64,000 bases of DNA from Raillietiella orientalis (lineage: Eukaryota): the NCBI GenBank assembly GCA_036172245.1, contig JAYWIR010000105.1, forward strand, positions 1-64,000, in the 5' to 3' direction. The translations under genes were made by a program, and so were the position numbers. Under the pieces are notes generated by a model that saw only the letters and a list, made by a program, of their open reading frames with translations, did not search any database and was not told where the DNA came from. Numbering within the stretch: position 1 is the stretch's first letter; the number at the start of each line of letters is the position of its first letter. Positions 1 to 37,043 of this stretch are shown piece by piece.

Positions 1-108
1 AATCCCCGCTGTGGAGAGCGGACGTGCTTTTCCTGCGCTCCGCCTGCGTGGCAAAGCGAGTGTTTTTTTCCTCTTAACTGATTTGTGCGTGCACATCGTC
101 GGTGTCCG

Positions 109-1976
109 ATGGCAGCGTTGCCAGAGGACACCGCGATGGAAGTAGGCGTGATGGAGGCTTGTTCGTCCCCACAGCCTACTGGATCAGGGGCAAGCGCCCG
201 GAATCGTCCCCGGCGACGCCGAGGTCCTGGAGCGCCATGGTGGCCGCGCCTAGCGTGGAAGCCATGGCCGAGATGGAAGCCTACAAGAAAGCAGGGTATA
301 AACCCTCGCTAGTCTACAAGGTAGGCAACCTTTTCGATGGACGAACTGTACGCGCCTTTACGAAGGCGCTGCAGGACGCCAATATTTTTGAAAAAGATCT
401 CGACGGCCTCTGCGTCCTCAGCGGCGGGCACCGGGTCGAGGTGGTATGTAAGGATATCACCTTGGCCCGACGCCTGTTCACCGACCCGCTGATCGTTGAT
501 GGTCGCAAGATCTTGCCGATAACGATGGACCGCTCGGTGGTGGTCCATCTCACTGGGATCTCAACTCGCATGACGAGGTCAGCGGTTCGAGAACAGCTTC
601 AAAAGCACGGAGAAGTTCACGCGTTGTGGCCGAAGTCCACGATTTTCCAAGGCTACAATAGCCTTTTCGGAGGTCAAGCTGCGGCGCGTATCACGGTAAA
701 AGAGGGTGGTGCGCTTCCCCATAAGCTGGGGGTCTGCCAAGAAGCTGTGGACCTCTGGTACGTGGGTAAACGCCAATTTTGTGGCTACTGCGATGCAGTA
801 GGGCATCTACGAAAAAGGTGCCCGAACATTGTGTGCCACCTATGCGGCGAAAAGGGTCACGTTCGGCGCGTGTGCCCCAAGCGCCCCACCCCGGTGCCCC
901 CTGCCGCCAAAAAGGCGCAGGGAAAACGTGGAAAGCTGGCAGAAAGACCAGCTCGCGAAAATGGCCGTTCCCAACTGCCAGCCTCCCTTCCTCCCGTACA
1001 GACGTCGGAGGAAATAGCTACCGCGGGAATGGAGGAGGGTTGGCAGCTGGTGCAGGCCAGAAAAGAGAAAAAAAAGAAAGTGATGATAGAAGAAAATTCG
1101 GAGAAGAAAACTGCCGGCAACAAGAGAAAAGCCGCGCCGCTTTCAAAAAAAAAACTCCGCGAATGCTCGGTGGCTCTGGAACGCTTAGCCGTTCCTGCCG
1201 AGTCCGCCCGCGGCAATGTTCACGGAACAGCTGATGCGGACGCGATGAATACTCGCGTGGACGAGCCCAATCTACGTGTAGAGGGTGAGACGCGAGACTC
1301 GCGCGCCGACAGCCAGGACGCCGCGCTCGATAAAGTCGCGGAGGAGCCCGCGGCAACGTTCGCCGTCAACGATGACGCCGCGCTCGATAAGGTCGCGGAG
1401 CAGCTTGCGGCAACGGTCGCCGCTGGCGAAGACGCGGCCTTCGAGAAAGCAGCGGAGGAGCTCGCAGCAACGCTCGCCGAGCGCGAAACCCCGTCGCGCA
1501 AGGGCGTACGCAGGTCGGCTCCGACGAAGAAGGCCCCCGCAGGTGAGTGCGACCTGGGGGCCGGAAGCGGATCCTCCTCCTCGCAGGCACCCCCCAGGAA
1601 GTCGGGACCCAAGTCCCACAAACCCAGGAGGCGCCTCCCCTCCACCAGTGAGGAGGAGAAGACGGAAGCCGCCGCCAGCGTGGGAATCCCGGAGGGGGAA
1701 TACCCACGCCCGGAAGCCGTCGAGTCGGCCACCCCCATGGAGGAGGGTGAGCAGGGGGGTGAAGTCCTCCCTGCAGTCGCGAAACCTGAGCAGCCCGAAC
1801 CCATGGAGCAGGACGAACAGGGAGGCGCCTCTCCACCTGCGGGTGATCCGGCCGACCCGCCGGCACCGATGGAGGAGGAGGAAAAGGTGCCTTCAGTACC
1901 TGTCCCCCCTCCCCCTCCACCTAGCGTCCCGCCCCAGCAGGTGGCGGACGCCGCATCGCCGTTTTCCCAGGAGTGA
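109..1976 (+). CDS. A1 ORF1, gag-like nucleic-acid-binding protein with two CX2CX4HX4C knuckles; one frameshift near the N-terminus
   Basis: CGYCDAVGHLRKRC and CHLCGEKGHVRRVC. ATG at 109 aligns with the A2/A3/A4 starts (MAALPEDTAMEV); the frame changes near 200. Confidence 0.85.
1317..1487 (+). repeat. Three imperfect 57-nt (19-aa) tandem repeats in A1 ORF1
   Basis: DAALDKVAEEPAATFAVND / DAALDKVAEQLAATVAAGE / DAAFEKAAEELAATLAERE. Confidence 0.8.
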
Positions 1977-2438
1977 CACCTGGGCTCGCCAGGCGCTGTC
2001 GGATTCGCGCGGCCTGTTGGAACGTCAACGGGCTGCGCGACAACGGCAACAGGCGAGATACAGCCGACACCCTGCTTGAGTTCGACCTGGCGCTGCTGCA
2101 GGAGATCCACGTGATCACCGCGGCAGACGCCCAGGAGATCGAGACGATCGCGGGGGGTCGGTTGTATTGGCGGTGCGGCCTCCGCAACACCTGCGGGGTG
2201 GGGTTCTTCGTGAAGCCGGCCATCGACGCTGCTGTGAAGGGCGTGCGCTTCGATGACGGCGGTCGGGTCGGTCAGCTGACTCTCGGCTGGTCCGACTCGA
2301 TCGATCTGATCGTCACAAACGTGTATGCCCCCAACGGCAAACAGGGCAACAGCAAACAGGTTGCTTCAAACCCTAAAACGCGACTATCTGGCGGAAAGGA
2401 CCGTGCGAAAGGCTCACCTGATAGCTGAGATTTCAATC
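1976..2438 (+). pseudogene. A1 ORF2 fragment 1: APE endonuclease N-half
   Basis: WNVNG, LLQEIH, NVYAP motifs; ends at HLIA-x-DFN where B1 is inserted. Confidence 0.88.
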
Positions 2439-2516
2439 GAGTGCAAACGTGTTTTTCTTCGCTCTCGTCTCCGTGCTTTCATCCGCTTGATCTTGGTGTC
2501 GTACATTTTGACGACG

Positions 2517-4439
2517 ATGTCGACCCAAATTGAAGCTACTAAAGTTGGAGAAACAGCATCCGGATCTGCAATCGCGGAACCGACGGCCGCCTCCACTTCG
2601 TCTTTCTCGCCAATTAAGAGGAGTTTTGCTGACGTTGCTGCCCCCGCATCCGTCAAAGGGAAGCCAGTCGACGAGTCGGAGTTGCGGGCATACGTATCCG
2701 AAGGCTATAGACCTGCTCTCCGTTATAAGGTGAGTGGTATTCTTTCTGCGCGCGATGGGAATCAGTTCGACGATGAACTGATTCGTGTTGGCGTGCGGGA
2801 GGAGGACCTTCTCGCCATTATGATCGTAAAAGACATGGACTATTTCAAAGTGCGTTGCAAAGACGCTGCACTTGTGCAACGCTTGCTGCGCACCCCGTTA
2901 TCGATCCGTGGCCAGAAGGTCTTCCCGGCCGCCATGGACGACTCATTTGCAGCGGAGATTTTCGACATTGAGTAGGAAATCACCGATATTGATATTCGGA
3001 ACGCGTTAGCGAAATTCGCCAAAGTCCATGCGCTGTGGAGGGTGCGTAGCAACCTCAAGGACTTCCCGTCCATACACAGCGGAGTCGCTGGAGTCCGGCT
3101 TACAATGCCGGAACGCCGTCTGCTGTCCACCAAACTACAGGTGGAAGACACGGTCGTTCACCTATGGTTCATGGGCAAAGTAAGAACGTGCGAGCAATGC
3201 GGGAAGGAGGGGCATTGTTTGGATAAATGCCCCTCTGGAAAATGCCGTTATTGCAAACTATCCGGGCACCTATTGAAAAATTGCCCGGATCTTTTGCGAA
3301 AAAAGTCAGCCGCGGAGCTCCATCTGAGAAAACAAAGCGCGGATGAGAAGAAAAAATCTGCGAAAAACCTGGAGACCCCACGGCAGAAATTCCGAAACAA
3401 CGCGAGGCGGAATGTCGCCCCAAAGCAGCAGGAAACCTCGCACGCGAAGCCCTGCGCGCCACCTCTCGCGGCAGGGGAGCCGCAAAAGAAAGGGTGCGGG
3501 GAATCCGGGCCAATGATAAGTCCCCCTAGGCGCAATAGCTGTCCTTCGCAAGCACGCCCGGCTCTCTCGGAGTTCAAGCAACCGGGGAAGACGTCAATGG
3601 ACAACGGCGGTAAGGACACTTCCAGTACAGTCAGATCCATTCCTTCACCTCCTGCAGTGGCTGAGAATCCCAAATCGGGTAAGAAGGGTTGTGCCGTGTC
3701 GACTTCGAAAGTTGGCAAAAAAAAATCCGCGTCGCGATCCAACACCGCGAAAGCGGACAAAAATCTCACGCCGTCGCAGTCGGAGAGCAAGCTCTCGACT
3801 GGCGCGGATGCCATGCCAACGAAGGGATTAAAAGCCCTTCCGAAAGCAGCGTCCATGACGAGCGTGTCGGAGCCATCGAAAGTGCTCCCGTCCAAAGACG
3901 CGGATGGCTTCAAAGATGGCCATGGAGCACAATCTCCATTTACGGCGCCACGCGAAGTGAGGAACCGTAATGAAGTAAAGAAGACTTCAGCAAAGGTCCC
4001 TCGTGCAACTGCGCGTGAGCACGCTGAAAACGCGCGCGCCGGGAAAGCAGGCGTCACCAAAAAAGATGCTCTGGTGACGGAAAACGAAAACAGGACAGCT
4101 GTCAATCCAGCAGAACCTGTCACTGCTTCGCGGAAGGCCGAAATTCGATCGAAAATGCGCCCGTCGGACTCCGAAATGGATGCCGTTCGGATCACCGAGA
4201 CGAGGACAACTCGTTCGAAAGCGTGTGCGCGCCGATCAAAAGTAGGCAGCCAGGCAACGCTAGCCGCGAAGCCACGCGAAGTCTCCACGAAACCCGACGG
4301 GGTTAAGCCTGGAGTGGAGGCATTACATGCATGCAGCACGACAGAGGACGGTGACGACCGTCTCCTCCAGCCATTCGTGCTGCTCGCCGTCTGCTCGCCG
4401 GATAAAGCGAGCAAAAAGCCGCCACATTCCCAGCAGTAA
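2517..4439 (+). pseudogene. B1 ORF1 (two CCHC knuckles) with one in-frame stop
   Basis: CEQCGKEGHCLDKC and CRYCKLSGHLLKNC; TAG at 2973-75 where B2-B4 have TCG. Confidence 0.88.
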
Positions 4440-7400
4440 TGCGGGCAATCGCGTCTTTTCGTCGTCTGTCCGTAACGTGTTGGAACGTGAACGGACTGCA
4501 GAACGACGAGAAGAGGCGATTAGTAGCCAACGCCCTGCGCCCCTTCGACCTCGCGCTGCTGCAGGAGATTCACGTAATCTCCGACGAGCAGGCAGCCGAA
4601 ATCGAGGAGCGCGCAGGCGGAACGCTACATTGGCGGTGCGGCGGCGCACACACGTGCGGCGTCCCGTTCCTCGTAAGAGGAAAAATGGCGGAAGCGGTGC
4701 GTAGTGTTCGTTTCGATGACGACGGACGGATAGGCCAGCTTGTCATCAAGTGGTCCGAGTCCATCGATCTCGTCGTTACGAACGTCTACGCGCCGAGTGG
4801 CTCTCGCTACCTCGAAGAAAGAGTAGCTTTCTTTGGTGAGGTGCAGAGCCAGTGGCTCAACAACTCCGGCTTCCAAGTGGCGCACCTCGTTGCTGGGGAC
4901 TTCAACGTCCGCCTGCTCTCCGACGATTGGAGCCGCCCGAGGAAGCGCGCGCTGCCCATCGAGATGTGCGCGTCCTTGCACGCCGCCAACTTGATGGTCA
5001 GCGAACCTGGAATGGAAAGATCGCTCGATCACGTTTTCCTCGATGAAAACCTGCATTCGCGTGTTGGTAGGAGAGGAAGATTGTTGACTGAGCTTTCTGA
5101 CCACCACAGGTTGGAGTTTGAGATCCTTCCGCCAGGCAGGGGGCCTCCGTTGCAAAGCTGGAGGATGCAGGCGGATTGGCTTAGCCAACCGGAGGCTGCG
5201 GAGCATCTACGTGGATACCTCCGAGGCTTTGCCATTCAAGAACTTGCGGACTGGGACGATCTCAAAAGATCTGTCCGCGAGTTCTGTTGCCAATTCCCCT
5301 TGCACCGTCTTCCACGCGGTTTCGGAGAGGGCCTGGCCAACAGTAGAGACTTTCTGCAGGCCCGCACGTTTTCGAGACGCACGGATGTCGGGCGTCTCGC
5401 AGAGTATAAGGCGAGGGCCGAGCGCCAGGTGTGGCAGTCCGGAGCAGCATTCCTGTTGGACGACAAGGGCCAGGAATGCTCGGCCCCAGCCGAAGTACGC
5501 CGCATTGTGAGACGCTACTACTCCTCGCTCTACGCGGAATCTCCGACGGAGGATATTCTTTCTGAGATACTCCTATCTCAAAATGCTCGTGTTGTCGGCG
5601 AGGAGGAACGCGAACTTCTCGACGAGCCCTTCACGGCGGATGAAATTTCGTCCGCAATCGCTGGGCTGAAGAGACGAAAGGCGCCAGGCGAGGATGGGCT
5701 CCCTGCAGAGTTTTATCAGTGCTTTGCAGTGGAGATCATTCCCTTCAAGCTGAAACTCGCGATGCTGATGAGTGAATCCGGGAATGTCCCGAATTCCTTC
5801 CGCTCAGCGAAGGTGCGTCTCCTGCCGAAAGGCGGAGACTTGCGCCAACTTAACAGCTGGCGTCCGATCACCTTGGTGAACTCGGACGTCAAGCTGTTTT
5901 CCAAGCTGTGGGTCGCGCGGTTAGGAAGTATCGCGGAATCTGTGGTGAGCCCGGAACAAACCTACGCGGTTCCGGGACGATCCATGGAGGCGAACATCCT
6001 TTTCGCGCGTACATGGATGCAGCTGCAGGAAGTTGTGACGCAGCAAAGCCAGGCTGCTGCGAAAGTCACTGCCGTAGGCAAGAAGAACAGGCGCCGACGG
6101 CAGGAGGGAACGCCAGGTGCCTTGGCGGTCGCGGTCGATCTCCACAAGGCGTTCGACTGCGTAAACCAGAAGCTGCTTTTGGAGCTAATGGAACGCCTTG
6201 GGTTCCCGGGACAACTCCTGCTGTATTTGCGCGCGTGCTGGCGCCACGCGCTAACCTGCATCACTTTTAGCGGCTGCCGCGTGTATGGTATTCCCGTTCG
6301 TAGGGGCATCCGACAGGGCGACAGCTTAATCCCGTTGCTCTTCAGCATCTTCTTTGAGTTGGTGCTAAGAGCATACAGGCTGACGCTGTCTCACTTGCCA
6401 AGCTCCTGCCCGGGAACGCCTGCCGTGGCCGCCTACGCTGATGACCTGCTTCTTCTGCTCCCCATGTCCACCCCGGCGTCCAGTGTCGAGGATTTCTTCG
6501 ACCTGATTCGTCGGGGAGCGGGCGTGAGCGTGAACAGAGAGAAGAGCGTGGTCGTTCCTGTGGATACGTCGTGGGAGGGGCAGTCCGACTGGATCCGTCT
6601 GGGGATCCCCACGGGCGGGTACTTTAAGTACCTTGGCGTTCCGTTCGGCGCTTTCGGCGCAACCCAAGCGTGGGCGGACTGTCCTCAGAAAGCAGAGTTG
6701 GCCATCAGCCCGTTCTTTAACGGCAAGTTCACCTTGCAGGATCGGGCGACTATTTGGAACACCTTTGTGGCCCCCCTCCTCCGTCCCCTGTTTTTTGTTT
6801 TGGATCCCCCCTATGCGGCGAAACAGCGAACTAAGCGCCTGCTCAGGAACGCTCTCTGGGGTCCGGCGAGATCCAGAATCCGCCTTAAAGAGTTGTCAGC
6901 TCCGCGTCGGGATGCAGGTTTGGGTATCCTGACAATGGAGCGAATCGGACTTCAGGTGCAGTTCCGACTGCTGGCACTGTGTGCCCAGCTATGGACATCC
7001 TCCCTGTGTGTGCCAGCTCGCATTCTCCTGCGGAGATGCGCCGGCAGCTGAGGATTTCTCTCGCTTTTGCCGGGCACTCAATACAGGAAGCGGGGTTTCG
7101 GTTTTCCATTGCGGCAGTTGACCGCACTTCTGGAAGCACACTCTTGGATCTCCTGCCGCCCAATGAACTTCGAAGCTTGGCGGCAGGAGTCTGTTGAATC
7201 CTGGGCGGCGTTCGAAGGAATACGCCCTGAAGATCTTCGCCCCCTGCGCCAATTTTTTCCACGATCCTTGGAAGAAGTACTGCAGCACGAGGTGAAGTTT
7301 TCTACCCTGGCTGCCACGCCTCTTGCCGCAGCGCTGTCTGCCCTCAGAGCAAGAAACGACAGTTACCAACCGGCGAGGTGGGAGGTTTCCTGCACGATAG

Positions 7401-8033
7401 CGGGAAGAACCAAACTCCTTGGCACCTGGAAGACAAGTGAGTTGGCGGACGCCTCCACTCCTCGTTTAAACTGCAATGGAACTCCTCCGGTGGGCAGAAG
7501 AACTTGCTGTCACCCCCGAAGAACTTGTAGTCCCTCCACAGTGTATTGACGGTTCGCTGCTCTCCCTTGCTTGAAAACAAGCCATGGTGCTTTTCGTTCA
7601 CTGGTGTTTTCATTGCAACGAGCGTTGGCATCCTGACTCCTTGGGACTTGCGTCTGCGAACTGATTTCGTAGCGGATCGACGGAGTCGATTCTGCACCTA
7701 CTTCTGGACTGCGGTGTCCTACAAGGACTGTGGCGTAGGCTGGCAACAGCACTAAGGCATCCCGTGGACACCGCAAGAGACTTGCTGCGACGATTCTTCA
7801 CGCCGAGCGGGCTGTCACTAAGCTCACGAATTGCAACCATCGGTTGCATACGCGCGTTAGTTTCCGTCCGCCAGGCGTTGGTAATCAACGGACAGCACCA
7901 AGAGGTAATCAGCAAAGCATCCTTCTACATGGGAGCATCCGCTAGATGGCCTCATTTGACAGAGGAGACAAAGAGGAATCTCGCCGCAATACACCGCCGG
8001 TTTACACACGCTCAGCAGCGGCCAACCCGGTGA
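4439..8033 (+). pseudogene. B1 ORF2 APE-RT-CCHC, open for 870 aa then nonsense and frameshift
   Basis: WNVNG/LQE/GDFN/SDH, KAPGEDG, WRPITL, DLHKAFD, GIRQGD, AYADD, FKYLG. TGA at 7049-51 where B2 has GGA. Confidence 0.92.
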
Positions 8034-8319
8034 TCATTGCCCTACCCTCCATAAACTATTTTTGTATTTTCTTTTTACACCCGCGTCCTCATAGGCTCCG
8101 GAACATTTTAGGTGCTCATCGTTTAAATCCCCGTGGGTACGGAGCCTAACCAAAAACTCGTTACCCTTCCCTACAGTTTTTGATTTTTGTTTGTTTCCCC
8201 TCATTCCTCCCACGCTGCTAGCGGTTTGTTTACCAGGCCTGCGTGCCTGTAATTATTCTATGTTCTCTGTCGTTCTGTTGGATAAGGACATTGTTTCTGA
8301 CCAGTTCATTATTATTATT

Positions 8320-8348
8320 AATAAACGCCCGGCGTGACCGGGTGATAA
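8320..8348 (+). terminator. Representative 3'-terminal module: AATAAA + CCCGG hairpin + GTGATAA
   Basis: AATAAA 8320-25, CCCGG-CGTGA-CCGGG 8328-42. Homologues end at 8692, 17264, 22889, 31115, 37034, 38746, 46632, 52780 and 56836. Confidence 0.7.
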
Positions 8349-8357
8349 ATTTCAATC

Positions 8358-8691
8358 TCCGCCTGCTAACAGGTGAGCCGGAAACACAAGTGAACGCTAT
8401 GAAGGAGTTGTGCGCCGCCATGCGTGCGCGCAACTTGTTCGCGGGTGAGAGGGGAATGGTCCACAGCATCGACTACGTCTTCCTCGACGCTGACCTGTGT
8501 TCACGCGTCGGCAAACGGGGGAGGGTTGTGTCGACGTTGTCGGACCATTCCCGGCTAATTTTCGAGATGCGGCCTCGCGACAAAGGACCGCTATCCAGGG
8601 ATTGGCGTCTGCCGGGGGACTGGACGCGACTCTCAGGTGCGAAGGAACACCTTCGCGGATACCTGAGAGGCGTCACGCTCCGGAATCTCTA
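8358..8691 (+). pseudogene. A1 ORF2 fragment 2: APE C-half and linker start
   Basis: LRLLTGEPETQVN...SIDYVFLD...LSDHSRL; matches the uninterrupted A4 sequence at 52798-53120 on the minus strand. Confidence 0.88.
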
Positions 8692-8904
8692 TTGAAACCC
8701 GGGTGCGCCGGGACGTTTATTCTCACGAATCAACCTATACAATCTGTGACTAGACCAGTAGTCCTGCCACGCCCTGGGAAGATATAGCTTGCCGGGCTAC
8801 CGGTGCGCAGACCGGCGCGGTCGACCTCGGCAGCAGAGGGGAGGGGCAACGAAACAAAAAGAAAACAAAGAATAAACAAAAATCAGGGAGGGAGCGGGAA
8901 GGGA

Positions 8905-13456: not shown

Positions 13457-16400
13457 CACCTGGGCTCGCCTGTCGCCGTCGAATCCGCGTGGCCAGTTGG
13501 AACGTCAACGGGCTGCGCGACGACGGCAACAGACGAGGTACGGCCGACACCCTGCGTGAGTTCGACCTGGCCCTGCTGCAGGAGATCCACGTGATCACCG
13601 CGGCTGACACCCAGGAGATCGAAACGATCGCGGGGGGTCGGTTGTATTGGCGATGCGGCGCCCGCAACACCTGTGGGGTCTCGTTTTTCGTGAAGCCGGC
13701 CATTGACGCTGCCGTGAAGGGCGTACGCTTCGATGACGACGGTCGGGTCGGTCAGCTGATTCTCAGCTGGTCCGACTCGATCGAATTGATCGTCACGAAC
13801 GTGTACGCCCCAAGCGGGAAAGGGGGATACAGCGACCGTACCAGGTTGCTGGAAACCCTGAAGCGCGACTGGCTGGCCGATACGAACGTGCGGAAGGCAC
13901 ACCTGATAGCTGAGGACTTTAATCTCCGTCTGCTGTCAGGTGAGCTCGAAGCACAAGAACGCACGGCCAACGAGTTGTGTGCTGCCATGCGCACGCACAA
14001 TCTGTTGACAAACGCGGAGAGAATGGACCGAAGCATCGACCACTTCTTTCTGGATGTCGACCTGTGCTCGCGGGTCGGCAAACGGGGAAAAGTTGCTTCG
14101 ACGCTGTCGGACCATTCCAGGATCATCGCCGAGGTTTCCCGCGTGACAAGGGACCCCCGTTCAGGGCGTGGCGGCTGCCTGGGGACTGGACGCGGTTCTC
14201 AGGTGCGAAAGAACACCTTGGTGAATTCCTGAGAGGCGTCAACCTTCGCAGTCTCCTAGACTGGGACCTGTTCACGGCCTTGGTCCGCGAGTTCTGCGAC
14301 GAGTTTCCCCTTCACCGCCTGCCCCCCGGATTCGGGGAGGGGGCTCGGAACCATCGGGCTTTTCTACAGGCCCGCCGGTACAAGAGTACCCCGAATGTCC
14401 GTCGCCTCGCGGAATATCGAGCCGGGGCCGAACGCCAAGCCTGGCAATCCGGGTTGGCCAGCTTGCTGGACGACCAGGGCCGGGAGCGATCCGCCCCACC
14501 CGCGATCAGGCACCTCGTGCGACGTTATTACTCCTCCCTCTACGCTAGGGCATTCCCAGAGCGGAACGCCTCGCGGCTCCTGCTCCCGGATGGAGCCTTG
14601 GCAATAGGGGAGGAGGAGAGGATCAGCCTCGACGAGCCTTTTTCTACTGGTGAAATTCTCGCCGTTATTAAAAGGCTTAAGAGGCTTAAGGCGCCAGGGG
14701 AGGACGGCCTGCCTGCGGAAATTTTTGAATGCTTCGCGACAGAGCTGGCTTCCCTGGTGCTCCAGTTGACCGGGCTGATCCGAGACGAAGGCGACGTTCC
14801 CGCCTCGTTTCGGTCAGCCCGTGTGAGGCTCCTCCCGAAGGGAGGGGACCTGAGATCCCTAGGCAACTGGCGTCCGATCACAATTGTGAATACGGTCGCC
14901 AGGCTGATCGCTGGACTGTGGGCATCGCGTCTAGGACAGGTGGCAGACTCCATAATTAGCCCGGAGCAGACATACGCTGTTCCCGGGCGAAGTATGGATG
15001 CCAACCTGTTCTTCGCGAGCACATAGTTCCATGTGCAACGCTGCCTGAATGAAACTGGCGGAAAGATTGGCAACCCCACTTTGGGGCCGCCAGCTGGGCT
15101 GGGAATGGACACCCGGGCTGGGAAGAGGGCCCTAGCGATCGCGGTCGATCTCCATAAGGCGTTCGACTGCGTTGACCAGGAGCTACTGCTGGAGCTCCTG
15201 GGTCGCATGGGCTTCCCACCCTCCCTTCTCTCCTTCCTGCGCTCCTGCTGGCGCAACGCCATAATTAACATCTGCTTTTCCAGCCAACAGGTGTACGGCG
15301 TGCCGGTGCGGCGGGCATACGGCAGGGCGATAGCCTCAGTCCCCTGCTCTTTAGCACCTACTTCGAGTTGGTGCTGAGAGCGTACAGGGTGACTTTGGCT
15401 GCCCTGCCCAGCTCGTGCCCCTTCACGTCCGCCGTAGCAGCATACGCCGACGACCTTCTCCTCATGTTGCCCATGTCCGCACCGGCAGCCGTAGTCGAGG
15501 ATTTCTTCGACCTGCTAAGTCGTGGGACTGGACTGCGGGTCAACAAGGCGAAGTCGTCGGTCGTACCGGTGGGTGCGACGTGGGTCGGACGACCTGACTG
15601 GATCCGTTCGGTGATCCCCACGGCCAGGTACCCGAAGTACCTGGGTGTCCCGTTGGGGGACTTCTGCCTCGCAGAATCCTGGTCAGGTCGTCTCCAGAAG
15701 GTAGAGTTGGCAATCGGCCCGTTCCTGGAAAGCAAGTTCCTTCTGCCGGAACGGGCCGCGGTGTGGAACGCCTTCGCGGCTCCCATCCTCCGCCCCCTGC
15801 TTTCTGTGTGCCTAGTCCCCCGTGACATTAAAAGAGGACAAAAGACCTACTCCGCATCGCCCTCTGGGGCAGCGGGAGGCCACGTGTGCCTCTGGTGGAT
15901 TTATGCGCTCCTCGTCGGGACGGCGGTCTCGGCCTCCTGACGCTGGAGCGCCTGGAAATACAGCTGCGATGGCGCACCCTCGCCATCGAAGCAAAGTCAT
16001 GGAGCACCCCTTGGTGCGCTCCCGCCCGAATCCTCGACAGCCGTGTGTCCAGGACGCAAGGACTCGCGTCGTACCTTCTGTGCTCCGGCAGGAAGGTGAG
16101 AAGATGCGGCCTTCTTCTTGGGCGCATGGAAGCCCTAGTCAGAGACAACGGCTGGACGGTATGCAGCCCCGCCAACTCCTCCGCCTGGCTGGAGAAATCA
16201 GTTGAGACGTGGGCCAAGCTGAACCTCCGGACTTCCCCGGACTGGAACCGCCTGAGATTCGGCCGCAACGCCCGCTGCACACTGCGGACTACTCTGGAGT
16301 GTCCCGCCAGGAGCGCGTGGGCGGAGACCACCCCTATAGCTTCGACTCTGCGCTTCCTCCGGAGGGTTTTAACCAGCGGCCTCAAGACAAAGTGGCAAGT

Positions 16401-22678: not shown

Positions 22679-22899
22679 TCCCTTCCCTGCCCCCCAACCT
22701 CATTTGTTTGTTTGCTTTTTTTTTTTTATTTTTGTTTTATCTCCATCCTCCTTCGCTGCTGAGGAACGCTACGCTGGGCTGCGTCCCGGTGTCCTGTTAG
22801 GTCCAGTGCATATGGCCGTGAGCGGTGCCTTGTACCGCGGATGTAGAGTTTTTTTAAAAATAAACGCCATGTGCGTACCCGGGTGTGAACCTCCCAGGC

Positions 22900-25208
22900 C
22901 AGTTGGAGGACGTGTTTTTCCTTCACTCCTCAAAGAGTAGTAGGAAAGCGCTTTCTTGTGTGTGGTGTTTTCTGTACATCATCGTTGTCCAATGGCCACG
23001 ACTTTAGAGGACACTGCGATGGAGGTGGGAAAGGGGGAGGCTAGTTCGCCCCACAGCCTACTGGAGCAAAAGCAGCCGCTCCGGAATCATCCCCGGTCAC
23101 GCCGTGGACATGGAGCGCCATGGTGGCCGCGCCCAGCGCAGAAGCCATGGCGGAGATGGCCGCATACAAGGCCTCCTTGTACAAGCCATCGCTTGTCTAC
23201 GAGGTAGGCAACTTGTTCGACGGCCGTACAGCGCGCGCCTTCAGCAAAGCGTTGAAGGACGCGAATGTCACCGAGAAGGATCTGGACGGCCTCTCCGTCC
23301 TCAGCGGCGGGCAGCGGATCGAGGTAGTCTGCAAAGATGTCACCTTGGCTCACCGCCTAATCCATGCGCCGCTGAACGTAGACGGCCGCCAGATCCTGCC
23401 AGTATGAATGGACCGATCCGTGGTGGTCCACATGACTAGCATCAGCAGCCGCATGACGCAATCAACGGTTGGTGAGGACTTACGGAAGTAAACTGAGGTG
23501 CACGCACTGTGGACGAAACCCTCCATTTTCGACGGCTTCGATAGCCTTTTTGGTGGTCAGGCTGCAGCGCGGTTCACCGAAAGGAAGAATTGTGGGCTTC
23601 ACCACAAACTACAGGTGGCGCAAGAAAACGTCGACCTGTGGTATGTAGGGAAGCCCCTGTATTGCGGGAATTGTGATACCGTGGGACAGCTAGGTAAAAG
23701 GTGTCTTAATATACAATGCCATTTGTGCAGGGTGCGGGGCCACGTTCGGCGCGTGTGCCCCAAACGCCCCACTTCGGTTCCCCCTGCCGCAAAAAAAGCG
23801 CCGGGTAAACGCGCTTTAAAGGTCTCTAGACCTAAAGTAGAAAAGGCCCAGCACAAGCTGCCAACACCTCAACCTCCGGCGCGTAAGCCAGAGGATAAAC
23901 CTTCTGAAACGGTGGAAGGCGAAGACGGATAGCAGCTTGTAGAGGCCAGAAAACCAAGGAAACTCCCACCCGCGAAGAGCAAAGAGCGCAAGACGGCCAA
24001 TTAGTTGAAAAAACCCGGTCCGCGCTCGAAAACTCTGCGCGAGTGCACGGTGGCACTGGAACGAATCGTCGTTCCCGAGATTGCTACCCGGAGCGTCGAT
24101 CAGCCCTTGCCGTTTCCGCTGTTTTCGAAGCTCGCGACGGCGAACGCTCTGTTTACACAGAGGGTGAGCTGCGGGACATAGCGGCGGTCGAAGCCGCAGA
24201 CGCCGCGTTCGCGCAGGCGGCGGAGGAGCTCGCGGTCACGCTGGCCGAGCGTGAGAATCCCTCACGCAAGGCCGTGCGAAGGCCGACTCCGGCGAGGAAG
24301 GCCCCCACAGGTGAGTAAGACCTGGGGTCCGGAAGTACATCCTCCTCCTCGGAGGCACCCCCCAGGAATTCAGGACGCAAGTCCCAGAAGCCCAGGAGGG
24401 GCCTCCCCTCCTCCAGCGAGGAGGAGAAGACGGAAGCCGCCGCCAGCGTGGGAAATTCGGAGGATGAATTCCCACGCTCGGAAGCCGTCGATGCGGCCAT
24501 CCCTATGAAGGAGGGTGAACAGGGGGGTGGAGTCTCCCCTGCAGGCGCCGACCCTGAACAGCCCGCCCCCATGGAGGAGGGCGAACACGTACGCGCGACC
24601 CCACCTTTGGGTGATCCGCTCGACGTACAGTTTCCTATGGAGGAGGGGGACCAGGTGCCTACAGCACCTGACCCCCCTCCTCCACCTAGCGTCCCGCCCC
24701 AGCAGGTGGCGGACGCCGCACTGCCATCTTACCAGGAGTAACACCTGGGCTCGCCAGTCGCCGTCGGATTCGCGCGGCCTGTTGGAATGTCAACGGGCTG
24801 CGCGACGACAGTAATAGGCGAGATAAAGCCGACACCCTGCGGGAATTCGACCTGGCCCTGTTGCAGGAGATCCACGTGATCACCGCAGCAGACGTCCAGG
24901 AGATCGAGACGATCGCGGGAGGTCGGCTGTACTGGCAAAGCAGCATCCGCAACACCTGCGGGGTCGCGTTCTTCGTGAAGCCGGCCACGGACGCTGCCGT
25001 GAAGGGCGTGCGCTTCGATGACGACGGCAGGGTCGGTCAGCTGATTCTCAGTGGTCCTAATCGATCGAACTGATCGTCACGAATGTGTACGCCCCCAGCC
25101 GTAAACAGGGATACAGCGACCGCACCAGGCTGCTGGAATCCATGAAGCGCGACTGGCTGGCGGACACGAACGTGCGGAAGGCTCACCTCATTGCGGGCGA
25201 TTTCAATC
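22900..25208 (+). mobile_element. LINE copy A3, 5' part only (decayed ORF1 22992-24741 and APE up to GDFN); interrupted by B2-B4, 3' part absent
   Basis: Starts CAGTTGGAGGACGTG like A4; separated from A1 by CCTCCCAGGC (22890-22899); ends at HLIAGDFN. Confidence 0.9.
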
Positions 25209-25214
25209 GAGTGC

Positions 25215-25227
25215 GGACGTGTTTTTC
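25215..25227 (+). promoter_or_regulatory. Representative 5'-terminal GGACGTG(T)n motif, DPE-like internal promoter candidate
   Basis: Present, exact or with 1-2 substitutions, within ~15 nt of all 13 visible 5' ends; function inferred only from resemblance to RGWCGTG. Confidence 0.55.
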
Positions 25228-25286
25228 TTCGCTCTCGTCTCCGTGCTTTCATCCGCTTCATCTTGGCGTCGTACATTTTGACGACG

Positions 25287-27210
25287 ATGTCGACCCAACT
25301 TGAAGCTACTGAAGTTGGAGGAACAGCATCCGGATCTGCAATCGCGGAACCGACGGCCGCCTCCACTTCGTCTTTCTCGCCAATGGAGAGGAGTTTTGCT
25401 GACGTTGCTGCCACAGCAGCCGTCAAAGGGAAACCACTCGACGAGTCGGAGTTGCGGGCATACGTAGCCCAAGGCTATAGACCTGCTCTCCGATATAAGG
25501 TGAGTGGTTTTCTTTCTGCGCGCGACGGGAATCAGTTCAACGATGAACTGACGCGTGTTGGCGTGCGGGAGGAGGACCTTCTCGCCATTATGCCCGTAAA
25601 AGACATGGGCTATTTCAAGGTGCGTTGCAAAGACGCTGCACTTGTGCAACGCTTGCTGCGCACCCCGTTGTCGATCCGTGGCCAGAAGGTCTTCCCGGCC
25701 GCCATGGACGACTCATTTGTGGCGGAGATTTTCGACATCGAGTCGGAAATCTCCGATACTGATATTCGGAACGCGTTGGCGAAATTCGCCACGGTCCATG
25801 CGCTGTGGAGGGTGCGTAGCAACCTCAAGGACTTCCCGTCCATACACAGCGGAGTCGCTGGAGTCCGGCTTACAATGCCGGACCGCCGTCTGCTGCCTAC
25901 CAAAATACAGGTGAATGACACGGTCGTTCACCTGTGGTTCGTGGGCAAAGTAAAAACGTGCGAGCAATGCGGGAACGAGGGGCATTGTTTGGATAAATGC
26001 CCCTCTGGAAAATGCCGTTATTGCAAACTATCCGGGCACCAATTGAAAAATTGCCCGGATCTTTTGCGAAAAAAGGCAGCCGCGGAGCTCCATTTTAAAA
26101 AACAGAGCGCGGATAAAAAGAAAAAATCTGCGAAAAACCTGGAGACCCCACGGCAGAAATTCGGTAAAAACGCGAGGCGGAATGTCGCCCCAAAGCAGCA
26201 GGAAACCTCGAACGCGAAGCCCTGCGCACCCCCTCTCGCGGCAGGGGAGCCGCAAAAGAAAGGGTGCGGGGACTCCGGGGCAATGGTAAGTCCCCCTAGG
26301 CGCAATAGCGGTCCTTCCCAAGCACGCCCGGCTCTCTCGGAGTTCGAGCAACCGGCGGGGACGTCAATGGACAACGGCGGTAAGGACACTTCCAGTACCG
26401 TCAGATCCATTCCTTCACCTCCTGCAGTGGCTGAGAAGCCCAAATCGGGTAAGAAGGGTTGTGCCGTGTCGACTTCGAAAGTCGGCAAAAAAAAAATCCG
26501 CGTCGCGATCCAACACCGCGAAAGCGGAGAAAAATCTCACGCCGTCGCAGTCGGAGAGCAAGCTCTCGACTGGCGCGGATGCCATGCCAACGAAGGGATT
26601 AAAAGCCCTTCCGAAAGCAGCGTCCATGACGAGCGTGTCGGAGCCATCGAAAGTGCTCCCGTCCAAAGACGCGGATGGCTTCAAAGATGGCCATGGAGCA
26701 CAATCTCCATTTACGGCGCCACGCGAAGTGAGGAACCGTAATGAAGTAAAGAAGACTTCAGCAAAGGTCCCTCGTGCAACTGCGCGTGAGCACGCTGAAA
26801 ACGCGCGCGCCGGGAAAGCAGCCGTCACCAAAAGCGATGCTCTGGTGACGGAAAACGAAAACAGGACAGCTGTCAATCCAGCAGAACCTGTCACTGCTTC
26901 GCGGAAGGCCGAAACCCGATCGAACATGCGCCGGTCGGACTCCGAAATGGATGCTGTTCCGATCACCGAGACGAGGACAACTCGTTCGAAAGCGTGTGCG
27001 CGCCGATCAAAAGTAGGCAGCCAGGCAACGCTCGCCGCGAAGCAACGCGAAGTCTCCACGAAACCCGACGGGGTTCAGCCTGGCGTGGAGGCATTACATG
27101 CATGCAGCACGACAGAGGACGGTGGCGACCGTCCCCTCCAGCCAGTCGTGCTGCTCGCCGTCTGCTCGCCGGATAAAGCGAGCAAAAAGCCGCCACCTTC
27201 CCAACAGTAA
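25287..27210 (+). pseudogene. B2 ORF1, single frameshift in an A-run near 26490
   Basis: ORFs 25191-26741 and 26461-27210 join to give the B3 ORF1 protein. Confidence 0.88.
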
Positions 27211-30200
27211 TGCGGGGAATCGCGTCTTCTCGTCGTCTGTCCGTAACGTGTTGGAACGTGAACGGACTGCAGAACGACGAGAAGAGGCGATTAGTAGCCA
27301 ACGCCCTGCGCCCCTTCGACCTCGCGCTCCTGCAAGAGATTCACGTAATCTCCGACGAGCAGGCAGCCGAAATCGAGGAGCGCGCAGGCGGAACGCTACA
27401 TTGGCGGTGCGGCGGCGCACACACGTGCGGCGTCGCGTTCCTCGTAAGAGGAAAAATGGCGGAAGCGGTGCGTAGTGTTCGTTTCGATGACGACGGACGG
27501 ATAGGCCAGATTGTCATCAAGTGGTCCGAGTCCATCGATCTCGTCGTTACGAACGTCTACGCGCCGAGTGGCTCTCGCTACCTCGAAGAAAGAGTAGCTT
27601 TCTTTGGTGAGGTGCAGAGCCAGTGGCTCAACAGCTCCGGCTTCCAAGTGGCGCACCTCGTCGCTGGGGACTTCAACGTCCGCCTGCTCTCCGACGATTG
27701 GAGCCGCCCGAGGGAGCGCGCGCTGCCCATCGAGATGTGCGCGTCCGTGCACGCCGCCAACTTGATGATCAGCGAACCTGGAATGGAAAGATCGCTCGAT
27801 CACGTTTTCCTCGATGAAAACCTGCATTCGCGTGTGGGCAGGAGAGGAAGATTGTTGACTAGGCTTTCTGACCACCACAGGTTGGAGTTTGAGATCCTTC
27901 CGCCAGGCAGGGGGCCTCCGTTGCAAAACTGGAGGATGCAGGCGGATTGGCTTAGCCAACCGGAGGCTGCGGAGCATCTACGTGGATACCTCCGAGGCTT
28001 TGCCATTCAAGAACTTGCGGACTGGGACGATCTCAAAAGATCTGTCCGCGAGTTCTGCTGCCAATTCATCTTGCACCGGCTTCCACGCGGTTTCGGAGAG
28101 GGCGTGGCCAACAGTAGAGACTTTCTGCAGGCCCGCACGTTTTCGAGACGCGCGGATGTCGGGCGTCTCGCAGAGTACAAGGCGAGGGCCGAGCGCCAGG
28201 TCTGGCAGTCCGGAGCAGCATGCCTGTTGGACGACAAAGGCCAGGAATGTTCGGCCCCAGCCGAAGTACGCCGCATTGTGAGACGCTACTACTCCTCGCT
28301 CTACGCGGAATCCCCGACGGAGAATATTCTTTCTGAGATACTCCTGTCTCAGGATGCTCGTGTTGTCGGCGAGGAGGAACGCGAACGTCTCGACGAGCCC
28401 TTCACGGCGGATGAATTTTCGTTCGCCATCGCTGGGCTGAAGAGACGAAAGGCGCCAGGCGAGGATGGGCTCCCTGCAGAGTTTTATCAGTGCTTTGCAG
28501 TGGAGCTCATTCCTTTGATGCTGAAACTCGCGACGCTGATGAGTGAATACGGAAATGTCCCTGATTCCTTCCGCTCAGCGAAGGTGCGTCTCCTGCCGAA
28601 AGGCGGAGACTTGCGCCAACTTAACAACTGGCGTCCGATCACCTTGGTGAACTCGGACGTCAAGTTGTTTTCCAAGCTGTGGGTCGCGCGGTTAGGAAGA
28701 ATCGCGGAATCTGTGGTGAGCCCGGAACAAACCTACGCGGTTCCGGGACGATCCATGGAGGCGAACATCCTTTTCGCGCGTACATGGATGCAGCTGCAGG
28801 AAGTTGTGGCGCAGCAAAGCCAGGCTGCTGCGAAAGTCACTGCCGCAGGCAAAAAGAACAGGCGCCGACGGCAGGAGGGAACGCCAGGTGCCTTGGCGGT
28901 CGCGGTCGATCTCCACAAAGCGTTCGACTGCGTAAACCAGAAGCTGCTTTTGGAGCTTATGGAACGCCTTGGGTTCCCGGCGCAACTCCTGCTGTATTTG
29001 CGCGCGTGCTGGCGCCACGCGCTAACCTGCATCACTTTTAGCGGCTGCCGCGTGTATGGTATTCCCGTTCGTAGGGGCATCCGACAGGGCGACAGCTTAA
29101 GCCCGTTGCTCTTCAGCATCTTCTTTGAGTTGGTGCTAAGAGCATACAGGCTGACGCTGTCTCACTTGCCAAGCTCCTGCCCGGGAACGCCTGCCGTGGC
29201 CGCCTACGCTGATGACCTGCTTCTTCTGCTCCCCATGTCCACCCCGGCGTCCAGTGTCGAGGACTTCTTCGACCTGATTCGTCGGGGAGCGGGCGTGAGC
29301 GTGAACAGAGAGAAGAGCGTGGTCGTTCCTGTGGGTACGTCGTGGGAGGGGCAGTCCGACTGGATACGCCTGGGGATCCCCACGGGCGGGTACTTTAAGT
29401 ACCTTGGCGTTCCGTTGGGCGCTTTCGGCGCAGCCGAAGCGTGGGCGGACTGTCTTCAGAAAGCAGAGTTGGCCATCAGCCCGTTCTTTAACGGCAAGTT
29501 TACCTTGCAGGAACGGGCGACTATTTGGAACACCTTTGTGGCCCCCCTCCTCCGTCCCCTGTTTTTTGTTTTGGACCCCCCTATGCGGCAAAACAGCGGG
29601 CTAAGCGCCTGCTCAGGAACGCTCTCTGGGGTCCGGCGAGATCCAGGATCCGCCTTAAAGATTTGTCAGCTCCGCGTCGGGATGCTGGTTTGGGTATCCT
29701 GACAATGGAGCGAATCGGACTGCAGGTGCAGTTCCGACTGCTGGCACTGTGTGCCCAGCTATGGACATCCCCCCTGTGTGTGCCAGCTCGCATTCTCCTG
29801 CGGAGATGCGCCGGCAGCGGAGGATTTCTCTCGCTTTTGCCGGGCACTCAATACAGGAAGCGGGGTTTCGGGTTTCCATTGCGGCAGTTGACCGCACTTC
29901 TGGAAGCACACACTTGGATCTCCTGCCGCCCAATGAACTTTGAAGCTTGGCGGCAGGAGTCTGTTGAATCCTGGGCGGCGTTCCAAGGAATACGCCCTGA
30001 AGATCTTCGCCCCCTGCGCCAATTTTTTCCACGATCCTTGGAAGAAGTACTGCAGGACGAGGTGAAGTTTTCTACACTGGCTGCCACGCCTCTTGCCGCA
30101 GCGCTGTCTGCCCTCAGGGCAAGAAACGACAGTTACCAACCGGCGAGGTGGGAGGTTTCCTGCACGATAGCGGGAAGAACCAAACTCCTTGGCACCTGGA

Positions 30201-30802
30201 AGCCAAGTGAGTTGGCGGACGCCGCCACTCCTCGTGTTACTGCAAAGGGACTCCTCCGGTGGGCAGAAGAACTTGCTGTCACCCCCGAAGAACTTGTAGT
30301 CCCTCCACAGTGTATGGACAGTTCGCTGCTCCCCCTTGCTTGGAAACAAGCCGTGCTGCTTTTCGTTCACTGGGGTTTTCAGTGCAACGAGCGTTGGCAT
30401 CGTGACTCTGGGGGACTTGCGTCTGCGAACTGCGTTCGGTGCGGGTCGACGGAGTCGATTCCGCACCTACTTCTGGACTGCGGTGTCCTACAAGGACTGT
30501 GGCGTAGGCTGGCAACAGCACTATTGCATCCCGTGGACACCGCAAGAGACTTGCTGCGACGATTCTTCACGCCGAGCGGGCTTTCAGTAAGCGCAAGGAT
30601 TGCAACTATCGGTTGCATACGCGCGATAGTTTCCGTCCGCCAGGCGTTGGTAATCAACGGACAGTACCAAGAGGTAATCAGCAAAGCATCCTTCTACATG
30701 GGAGCATCCGCTAGATGGCCTCATTTGACAGAGGAGACAAAGAGGAATCTCGCCGCAATACACCGCCGGTTTACACACCCTCATCAGCGGCCAACCCGGT
30801 GA
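27210..30802 (+). pseudogene. B2 ORF2 APE-RT-CCHC, single frameshift in a C-run near 29580 (nearly intact, ~1200 aa)
   Basis: 830-aa and 425-aa ORFs overlap; all catalytic motifs present; CVRCGSTESIPHLLLDC. Confidence 0.92.
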
Positions 30803-31202
30803 TCATTGCCCTACCCTCCATAAACTAAATTTGTATTTTCTTTTTACACCCGCGTCCCCATAGGCTCCGGAACATTTGAGGTGCTCATCGTTTAAATCCC
30901 CGTGAGTACGGAGCCTAACCAAAACCCCTTTTCCCTTCCCTCCAGTTTTTGATTTTTGTTTGTTTCCCCTCATTCCCCCCACGCTGCGAGCGGTTTGTTT
31001 ACCAGGCCTGCGTGGCGGTAATTTTTCTATGTTCTCTGTCGTTCTGTTGGTTGGGGACATTGTCCCTGACCAGTTTATTATAATTAATAAACGCCCCGGC
31101 GTGACCGGGTGATAAATTTCAATCGAGTGCGGACGTGTTTTTCTTCGCTCTCGTCTCCGTGCTTTCATCCGCTTCATCTTGGCGTCGTACATTTTGACGA
31201 CG

Positions 31203-33119
31203 ATGTCGACCCAACTTGAAGCTACTGAAGTTGGAGGAACAGCATCCGGATCTGCAATCGCGGAACCGACGGCCTCCTCCACTTCGTCTCTCTCGCCAAT
31301 GGAGAGGAGTTTTGCTGACGTTGCTGCCACAGCAGCCGTCAAAGGGAAACCACTCGACGAGTCGGAGTTGCGGGCATACGTAGCCCAAGGCTATAGACCT
31401 GCTCTCCGATATAAGGTGAGTGGTTTTCTTTCTGCGCGCGACGGGAATCAGTTCATCGATGAACTGACCCGTGTTGGCGTGCGGGAGGAGGACCTTCTCG
31501 CCATTATGCCCGTAAAAGACATGGGCTATTTCAAGGTGCGTTGCAAAGACGCTGCACTTGTGCAACGCTTGCTGTGCACCCCGTTGTCGATCCGTGGCCA
31601 GAAGGTCTTCCCGGCCGCCATGGACGACTCATTTGTGGTGGAGATTTTCGACATCGAGTCGGAAATCTCCGATACTGATATTCGGAACGCGTTGGCGAAA
31701 TTCGCCACGGTCCATGCGCTGTGGAGGGTGCGTAGCAACCTCAAGGACTTCCCGTCCATACACAGAGGAGTCGCTGGAGTCCGGCTTACAATGCCGGACC
31801 GCCGTCTGCTGCCCACCAAACTACAGGTGAAAGACACGGTCGTTCACCTGTGGTTCGTGGGCAAAGTAAGAACGTGCGAGCAATGCGGGAAGGAGGGGCA
31901 TTGTTTGGATAAATGCCCCTCTGGAAAATGCCGTTATTGCAAACTATCCGGGCACCAATTGAAAAATTGCCCGGATCTTTTGCGAAAAAAGGCAGCCGCG
32001 GAGCTCCATTTTAAAAAACAAAGCGCGGATAAAAAGAAAAAATCTGCGAAAAACCTGGAGACCAAACGGCAGAAATTCGGTAAAAACGCGAGGCGGAATG
32101 TCGCCCCAAAGCAGCAGGAAACCTCGCACGCGAAGCCCTGCGCACCCCCTCTCGCGGCAGGGGAGTTGCAAAAGAAAGGGTGCGGGGAATCCGGGGCAAT
32201 GGTAAGTCCCCCTAGGCGCAATAGCTGTCCTTCGCAAGCACGCCCGGATCTCTCGGAGTTCGAGCAACCGGCGGGGACGCCAATGGACAACGGCGGTAGG
32301 GACACTTTCAGTACCGTCAGATCCATTCCTCCACCTCCTGCAGTGGCTGAGAAGCCCAAATCGGGTAAGAAGGGTTGTGCCGTGTCGACTTCGAAAGTCG
32401 GAAAAAAAAAATCTGCGTCGCGATCCAACACCGCGAAAGCGGAGAAAAACCTCACGGCGTCGCAGTCGGAGAGCAAGCTCTCGAATGGCGCGGATGCGAT
32501 GCCAACGAAGGGATTAAAAGCCCTTCCGAGGGCAGCGTCCATGACGAGCGTGTCGGAGCCATCGAAAGTTCTCCCGTCCAAAGACGCGGATGGCTTCAAA
32601 GATGGCCATGGAGCACAATCTCCATTTACGGCGCCACGCGAAGTAAGGAACCGTAATGAAGTAAAGAAGACTTCAGCAAAGGTCCCTCGTGCAACTGCGC
32701 GTGAGCACGCTGAAAACGCGCGCGCCGGGAAAGCAGCCGTCACCAAAAGCGATGCTCTGGTGACGGAAAACGAAAAGAGGACAGCTGTCAATCCAGCAGA
32801 ACCTGTCACTGCTTCGCGGAAGGCCGAAACCCGATCGAACATGCGCCGGTCAGACTCCGAAATGGATGCCGTTCCGATCACCGAGACGAGGACAACTCGT
32901 TCGAAAGCGTGTGCGCCCCGATCAAAAGTAGGCAGCCAGGCAACGCTCGCCGCGAAGCAACGCGAAGTCTCCACGAAACCCGACGGGGTTAAGCCTGGCG
33001 TGGAGGCATTACATGCATGCAGCACGACAGAGGACGGTGGCGACCGTCCCCTCCAGCCAGTCGTGCTGCTCGCCGTCTGCTCGCCGGATAAAGCGAGCAA
33101 AAAGCTGCCACCTTCTTAG
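31203..33119 (+). CDS. B3 ORF1, essentially intact (stops two codons early)
   Basis: Open frame with both knuckles; TAG at 33117-19 replaces a Gln codon. Confidence 0.88.
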   Translation: MSTQLEATEVGGTASGSAIAEPTASSTSSLSPMERSFADVAATAAVKGKPLDESELRAYVAQGYRPALRYKVSGFLSARDGNQFIDELTRVGVREEDLLAIMPVKDMGYFKVRCKDAALVQRLLCTPLSIRGQKVFPAAMDDSFVVEIFDIESEISDTDIRNALAKFATVHALWRVRSNLKDFPSIHRGVAGVRLTMPDRRLLPTKLQVKDTVVHLWFVGKVRTCEQCGKEGHCLDKCPSGKCRYCKLSGHQLKNCPDLLRKKAAAELHFKKQSADKKKKSAKNLETKRQKFGKNARRNVAPKQQETSHAKPCAPPLAAGELQKKGCGESGAMVSPPRRNSCPSQARPDLSEFEQPAGTPMDNGGRDTFSTVRSIPPPPAVAEKPKSGKKGCAVSTSKVGKKKSASRSNTAKAEKNLTASQSESKLSNGADAMPTKGLKALPRAASMTSVSEPSKVLPSKDADGFKDGHGAQSPFTAPREVRNRNEVKKTSAKVPRATAREHAENARAGKAAVTKSDALVTENEKRTAVNPAEPVTASRKAETRSNMRRSDSEMDAVPITETRTTRSKACAPRSKVGSQATLAAKQREVSTKPDGVKPGVEALHACSTTEDGGDRPLQPVVLLAVCSPDKASKKLPPS

Positions 33120-33124
33120 CAGTA

Positions 33125-36718: not shown

Positions 36719-37043
36719 TCATTGCCCTACCCTCCATAAACTAAATTTGTATTTTCTTTTTACACCCGCGTCCCCATAGGCTCCGGAACATTTTAGGTGC
36801 TCATCGTATAAATCCCCGTGAGTACGGAGCCTAACCAAAAACCCGTTACCGTTGTCTCCAGTTTTTGATTTTTGTTTGTTTCCCCTCATTCCCCCCACGC
36901 TGCGAGCGGTTTGTTTACCAGGCCTGCGTGCCGGTAATTTTTCTATGTTCTCTGTCGTTCTCTTGGTTGGGGACATTGTCCCTGACCAGTTTATTATTAT
37001 TATTAATAAACGCCCCGGCGTGACCGGGTGATAAATTTCAATC

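Follow-up and report, generated by a model that had tools for sequence, protein, structure and literature searches.

The window analysed here is a 64-kb stretch of Raillietiella orientalis DNA (contig JAYWIR010000105.1, positions 1 to 64,000) with a G+C content of about 59%. Self-comparison revealed that it consists throughout of related non-LTR retrotransposons (LINEs) nested in one another, and a domain scan of its 41 long open reading frames (ORFs) detected reverse transcriptase 11 times, Exo_endo_phos seven times and a CCHC knuckle five times. Self-comparison and the joints together gave the nesting order: A1 holds B1 and E1, E1 holds A2, A4 holds E2, and E2 holds F. The 5′ end is reached by B1 to B4, A2, A3, A4, E1 and E2. 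This is not the pattern of one family inserting into itself with mostly 5′-truncated copies; instead, several families, whose endonucleases are about 50% alike, target one another.

All families share a 3′ end with AATAAA and a CCCGG/CCGGG-type hairpin, without poly(A), and all except F share a 5′-terminal (G)GACGTG followed by a T-rich run. Such 5′ ends lie at 14, 2439, 11614, 22903, 25209 and 41763, and 3′ ends at 8348, 17266, 22891 and 46630. Insect LINE promoters carry the downstream promoter element RGWCGTG, which the 5′ motif of these families appears to resemble.

The first host, A1, runs on the plus strand. Its 5′ part (14..2438) holds the 5′ UTR, an ORF1 that encodes a CCHC knuckle, and the endonuclease as far as its GDFN codons, and is decayed, with frameshifts ahead of the site. 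The left copy of a 9-bp sequence, ATTTCAATC, occupies 2430..2438 (+) and forms the A1/B1 5′ junction. It is followed by B1 (2439..8348, +), a full-length B element of 5910 bp with a broken ORF1 and an ORF2 (4439-7051) that encodes endonuclease and reverse-transcriptase domains and stays open for 870 codons. The right copy of ATTTCAATC (8349..8357, +) forms the B1/A1 3′ junction, after which A1 resumes with the rest of its endonuclease (8358..8689, +; 94.9% identical to A4) until antisense E1 interrupts it.

The second host, A3, contributes only its 5′ part up to the GDFN codons (22892..25208, +; 91.5% identical to A4), ending in the target copy at 25200-25208. Three B copies follow head to tail on the plus strand, with exactly one ATTTCAATC per joint. 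B2 (25209..31115; 5907 bp) has the fewest private changes and an ORF2 (27210-29702) with endonuclease and reverse-transcriptase domains; ATTTCAATC at 31116..31124 (+) separates it from B3 (31125..37034; 5910 bp), whose ORF1 (31203-33119) is open for 638 codons and whose ORF2 is broken after 554 codons. A further ATTTCAATC at 37035..37043 (+) leads into B4 (37044..38333), which consists of the first 1290 bp alone and has the most private changes within the array. At 38333/38334, B4 abuts internal ORF1 sequence, on the minus strand, of the LINE into which A4 is also inserted; the break marks a rearrangement or a deletion and is no retrotransposition joint. Because B4 is cut off at this rearrangement, the downstream half of A3 is absent from the window.

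A4 provides the empty counterpart. On the minus strand, ATTTCAATC lies at 53115..53123 within the GDFN codons of an endonuclease frame (52888-53592) that is open for 235 codons, and the codons run uninterrupted as AHLIAGDFNLRLLTGE, reading HLIAGDFNLRL. At its joint, A3 has CTC ATT GCG GGC GAT TTC AAT C, reading LIAGDFN within the longer frame AHLIAGDFN, and A1 has CAC CTG ATA GCT GAG ATT TCA ATC, one base short, which reads HLIAEISI. Past the right ATTTCAATC, A1 continues as TCCGCCTGCTAACAGG, letter for letter the A4 empty site. Since ATTTCAATC stands on both sides and A1 resumes as the empty A4, B1 is a clean 5910-bp insertion with a 9-bp target-site duplication and no terminal repeats. The 3′ ATTTCAATC may be a true duplication or, alternatively, part of the end of the B RNA itself. 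A sequence-only reading of the window had placed the starts of B1 (2439) and B2 (25209) right after ATTTCAATC in HLIA(G)DFN, in two different hosts, and had seen the empty site in A4; all three observations were confirmed.

All four B copies in the window sit at the GDFN site, every joint is exact and every copy is in sense orientation relative to its host; self-comparison found no other stretch highly similar to B. The copies differ from one another by 2.5-6.5% and so represent distinct loci rather than a collapsed repeat. In contigs assembled from public reads (four runs; the best run, with 70% of sampled words, may be the source sample), no B junction was bridged at the 31-letter minimum: the left flank entering B was covered by 29 letters and the right flank leaving B by about 10-19 letters. 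One read-contig joint, 2325->8349, fits the empty-site form; one of its sides measures 27 letters, below the 31-letter minimum, and it gives no independent support.

B is an element of about 5.9 kb with a 78-nt leader (5′ UTR). ORF1 (638 codons) is open only in B3 and matched no Pfam family at E up to 1; the ORF1s of A1, A2 and A4, unlike that of B, carry a CCHC knuckle. In B1 (4436-4441) and B2 (27207-27212), the ORF2 start shares one base with the ORF1 stop, which suggests translation of ORF2 by termination-reinitiation in these copies; in B3, ORF2 starts five bases past the ORF1 stop. The ORF2 of B2 matches PF03372 (Exo_endo_phos, E 5e-13) and PF00078 (RVT_1, E 1e-21), and the ORF piece that follows it has a weak zf-RVT match. 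None of the three long copies has an uninterrupted ORF2, which breaks off at 870 (B1), 830 (B2) and 554 (B3) codons, and the window thus holds no intact B.

Among solved structures, the best relative of B ORF2 is human L1 ORF2p (E = 3.8e-47, against 4e-15 for R2). When the endonuclease domains of B1, B2 and four other elements were aligned (six in all), B was seen to keep the invariant N, E, Y, D/N, D and DH columns and to be about 50% identical to the endonucleases of the other families. A three-residue insertion directly after its GDFN is, as speculation, a candidate specificity element. The 3′ end of B consists of (TTA)n, AATAAA, the CCCGG/CCGGG hairpin and GATAA, with no poly(A) tail; the hairpin folds as predicted, modestly better than shuffled sequences (z -1.6 to -2.0). 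By its ORF1, its ORF2 with endonuclease then reverse transcriptase, and its target-site duplication, B is classed as an APE-type LINE of the L1 superfamily.

Searches beyond the window returned no close relative of B. The 3′ hairpin-tail pattern had no matches in metagenome contigs, and its single match in prokaryote genome contigs fell in an unrelated bacterial-looking stretch and was taken as chance. A protein-based scan of metagenome contigs gave 74 loci whose long matches were at most about 31% identical, with higher identity just in a few segments of about 30-80 residues. Of 24 hits in the protein database, one on a 2.9-kb contig reached 62% identity and the other 23 at most 30%; none carried a LINE family name or was useful for junctions.

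Alignment to a solved structure identified what the insertion site encodes. The A4 endonuclease aligned to the human L1 endonuclease structure 1vyb with LIAGDFN on LIMGDFN, and the D and N of GDFN correspond to positions 145 and 147, counted along the 1vyb alignment; on this basis, the target is assigned to the D145/N147-equivalent codons of an L1-type endonuclease. In the mutant data of PMC1950540, D145A, the control that lacks catalysis, has 3% nicking activity, and retrotransposition of the double mutant D145A/N147A is 0% (Table 1). The earlier view that GDFN carries catalytic APE residues is thereby borne out, and so is the view that the host endonuclease is destroyed by each insertion. 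GDFN stays upstream of the insert, and the A3 frame continues 33 codons into the 5′ end of B2 before a stop; judged from the reading frames, host ORF2 is cut right after GDFN and loses the latter half of its endonuclease as well as its entire reverse transcriptase.

We compiled 12 GDFN-codon sites in the window, 10 by pattern search and those of A1 and A2 by eye (frame or first residue altered). Three of them match the 10-mer GATTTCAATC exactly: A1 and A3, both occupied, and A4, empty. The remaining nine differ from it at 1-4 of ten bases and are all empty. They comprise the GDFN codons of B itself (GACTTCAACG, three mismatches, at 4880-4909 in B1, 27651-27680 in B2, where they read AHLVAGDFNV, and 33566-33595 in B3), those of E1 (GATTTCAACC), E2 (GATTTCAACT), F (GATTTTAATA), H (GATTTTAACG) and G (GACTTTAACG), and that of A2 (GACTTTAATC, 13915..13924, +, reading AEDFNLRL). 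Occupancy was therefore 2/3 for exact sites and 0/9 for variant sites (Fisher p = 0.045, on sites that are not independent copies, several coming from one family).

Sixteen of the 22 differences at the variant sites fall at third codon positions, and the rest at the tenth base, which is the first base of the next codon. GAC and AAC were preferred over the GAT and AAT of the target in all six coding stretches counted, so the target is the minor-codon version of the GDFN motif, from which synonymous escape is easy. The proposal that B uses a site the host cannot easily mutate is thus not supported: the amino acids are fixed, the bases are not. Self-protection of B by recoding of its own GDFN codons was also considered, but these codons give no evidence for it, GAC and AAC being the preferred ones in all families counted.

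Allowing at most one mismatch, the window has eight occurrences of the 10-mer where 3.09 are expected, a number that 2 of 100 shuffles reached. A fourth exact copy lies at 59952-59961, outside any endonuclease motif, and is empty. Because this copy and the exact A4 site are both unoccupied, either the GDFN site is not saturated or the 10-mer alone is insufficient and more context is needed.

Whether the two host contexts record separate events was evaluated by comparing the divergence of the flanks with that of the inserts. The 5′ parts of A1 and A3 are 74.5% identical over about 2.4 kb (1710/2294 compared bases), with 84.4% in the final 1000 columns and 83.6% in the final 300, and they diverge up to 1-2 bases from the 9-mer; B1 and B2 are 96.1% identical (5674/5905). 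The difference in identity between flank and B is highly significant (Fisher p = 1.6e-37, last 1000 columns). The nearest relative of A3 is A4 (91.5%), which lacks B. Together with the clean 9-bp duplication, these observations point to independent site-specific insertion, as the sequence-only reading had proposed; within the scope of two host contexts and four B copies in one window, it is well supported for the two hosts and likely for all four events.

That reading had itself named the main alternative, in which the A1 and A3 flanks are one converted ancestral junction. In this scenario a single ancestral A+B composite, the product of one insertion event, was later duplicated or moved as a unit, and its flanks were overwritten by gene conversion. 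Composites of this kind do occur in the window. E1 (8690-19881, -, with A2 nested inside) in A1 and E2 (41757-52782, +, with F nested inside) in A4 share one host site, antisense and just past the endonuclease domain, at CTCCGGAATCTC; this sequence is duplicated on both sides of E1, and the second copy at E2 has drifted to TTCAGGAATCTC. Because inserts (93.7-94.7% identical) and A1/A4 flanks (88.9-94.9%) are similarly alike, the E pair may be one duplicated composite rather than two separate events. The A copies also vary in mutual identity along their length, with 80-99% per 200 columns, a pattern that hints at recombination between them.

For B, the flanks are 4-6 times more diverged than the B copies and differ to within 1-2 bases of the 9-mer. 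Conversion would have had to end exactly at the joint in both copies. The undisturbed site of A4, the element closest to A3, would in addition require a precise loss of B. Since the flanks are far more diverged than the inserts and the nearest relative of A3 is empty, a single copied ancestral junction is very unlikely. A related candidate, that A1 is a chimera of two B-bearing hosts recombined at B1, was not supported. Identity between A1 and A4 does step up at the site, being 86% over the 200 columns that precede it and 94-97% beyond it (p = 0.002), but A1/A4 identity elsewhere spans the same 80-99% per 200 columns and the 13-base 5′ flank is ambiguous.

A second alternative holds that B has only a regional or chromatin-state preference for the LINE island, the shared base being a coincidence or an artefact of collapsed-repeat assembly. 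The make-up of the window is compatible with a regional preference, since every insertion into 64 kb of nested LINEs falls in a LINE. It leaves unaccounted for that four joints, in two diverged hosts, agree in base, strand and 9-bp duplication; by our own reasoning, two independent events would share base and strand of a host of about 5.6 kb by chance in about 1 in 11,000 cases. The 2.5-6.5% divergence among B copies speaks against a collapsed repeat, and we consider this explanation the least credible of those weighed here.

The tandem array in A3 provides additional information on the order of insertion. Over the 1291 columns common to the four copies, private changes number 48 in B1, 30 in B4, 16 in B3 and 9 in B2, and B1 and B4 share 10 variants against B2 and B3. 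Because private changes fall from B4 through B3 to B2, the array copies appear to differ in age, with the oldest rightmost and the youngest beside the upstream flank of the host. In this one array, the gradient suggests entry of new copies at the upstream 9-mer; if so, B would have to recognise the 9-mer together with host sequence upstream of it, and not the downstream TCCGCC. Unequal crossing-over could have contributed in part to the three tandem copies.

Target-primed reverse transcription is the standard model of LINE integration. We propose that B is probably a target-specific LINE that integrates by this route at G^ATTTCAATC, in the GAT TTC AAT C(TC) GDFN codons of A-type LINE endonucleases. 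It most likely aims at the nine-base sequence, because exactly the same nine bases were hit in two clearly different hosts. The B endonuclease would nick the bottom strand at the left edge of the 9-mer, 5′-GATTGAAAT^C-3′, and the nicked 3′ end would prime cDNA synthesis on B RNA. A top-strand cut 9 bp downstream would then generate the 9-bp duplication. As each insertion would regenerate the 9-mer on both sides, the site would be reusable and a head-to-tail array could grow. For B, such a target would be a multicopy landing pad, harmless to the cell; the ORF2 of the host copy is killed.

Alternatively, the position could be set mainly by base pairing, with precision derived from the RNA, as has been proposed for the 3′ ends of some rDNA elements: read-through B transcripts ending in AUUUCAAUC would anneal to nicked DNA ending in GATTGAAAT. 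The presence of ATTTCAATC after every B copy is consistent with this, since a read-through transcript would be able to pair with the primer strand, whose end is complementary to AUUUCAA; so is the lack of poly(A) in B. Annealing alone would leave the position of the initial nick unexplained, though, and the exact 10-mer at 59952 is empty, while the age order of the array points to a required upstream host sequence. Base pairing is thus improbable as the main determinant; it overlaps with target-specific nicking by the B endonuclease and may add precision to it.

Among known systems, target-specific APE LINEs are probably the closest to B. R1Bm in 28S rDNA and Tx1L in the DNA transposon Tx1D are described as APE LINEs with exact targets and sequence-specific endonucleases (PMC1950540), and the specific APE endonuclease of R1Bm is reported to cut both strands (PMC1919474). 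Like B, Tx1L (Xenopus laevis, L1/Tx1 group) is an APE LINE that uses one exact sequence inside another mobile element, as presented in the former source. Whereas the target of Tx1L is a DNA transposon, that of B is a retrotransposon of the same broader group, hit in protein-coding catalytic codons; the likeness lies in targeting and in an L1-like ORF2. R1Bm and R2 of insects resemble B in exact insertion, a short duplication, a conserved multicopy target and independence from poly(A). They insert into a cellular gene on which host selection acts, in contrast to the gene of another parasite used by B, whose bases are free to drift synonymously, and B ORF2 is closer to L1 ORF2p than to R2.

The nested landscape itself recalls Zepp of Coccomyxa/Chlorella and ZeppL-1_cRei of Chlamydomonas, reported as L1-type LINEs that target existing copies and thereby form nested clusters (PMC8226300, PMC3446292). 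Zepp is described as self-nesting with frequent 5′ truncation, yielding arrays of 3′ ends (PMC8226300). In the window, LINE copies are likewise nested in one another, but distinct families cross-target, most copies extend to the 5′ end and the joints are precise to a single base. B acts like the target-specific APE LINEs and sits in a Zepp-like landscape, and what sets it apart is its target, the codons for the catalytic motif in the endonuclease of a sister LINE.

Homing endonuclease genes and mobile introns copy as DNA via double-strand-break repair, and splicing rescues the host gene. The likeness of B to homing elements drawn in the sequence-only reading holds in part: both choose a target in the codons of a conserved catalytic motif. 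It does not extend to mechanism, as B shows a target-site duplication, LINE architecture, reverse-transcriptase-type ends and a truncated host ORF, with no sign of splicing or DNA-repair copying. A full-text literature search returned no description of a LINE that targets the endonuclease codons of another LINE; an earlier one may exist.

Other families in the window likewise occupy recurrent or motif-coding sites. A2 (11614-17270) lies antisense in E1, with joints near 11600-11625 and 17255-17285, and is flanked by an 11-bp duplication, CCCCAAATCCC, corresponding in reverse to the PAGFGEG codons in ORF2 of E; the matching site is undisturbed in E2 near 44365-44375. F (about 46630-52119) is antisense in E2. 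The 3′ end of A1 and the 5′ end of A3 share a single 11-mer, TCCCAGGCCAG (22880-22905), in a tail-to-head tandem like the B array. A4 sits in sense orientation inside ORF1 of another minus-strand LINE, flanked by TCCCAGGCCAG and TCCAAGGCTGG (38727-38745, 55424-55440), and E1 and E2 carry CCCCCAAGGCTGG at the corresponding place of ORF1. From these sequences, the A4-type lineage may have a fixed target of its own.

G, a sister family of B (about 60490 to the end of the window), is 75% identical to B in ORF2 and starts antisense early in the endonuclease of H (60470-60610), before the LEIERI codons and about 300 bp upstream of the GDFN of H; one joint is visible. Judged from this joint, G seems to use a site and orientation other than those of B.

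These observations lead us to a broader reading that we offer tentatively and hold to be somewhat doubtful: B would be a member of a guild of sister LINE families, each recognising its own short sequence in conserved coding motifs of the others. With similar reserve, the possible members in the window would be B in sense at GDFN, E antisense past the endonuclease, A2 antisense at PAGFGEG, the A4 type in sense in ORF1, and G antisense early in the endonuclease. If such a guild exists, LINE islands build themselves without touching host genes, and the families escape one another only by synonymous drift, a retrotransposon arms race fought in codon choice. Given its sense orientation and 78-nt 5′ UTR, B could also ride on the transcript of its host element; R2 rides on rRNA.

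Insertion of one LINE into the catalytic codons of others would amount to a retrotransposon living as a parasite on another retrotransposon. It would also offer a simple mechanism by which pure-LINE islands, such as the centromere-like Zepp clusters of algae, grow without damage to genes. Target-specific LINEs are natural models for programmable, RNA-templated gene insertion, for which a new specificity means a new endonuclease/target pair. The target of B also offers a testable example of a sequence that is conserved as protein and free to change as DNA.
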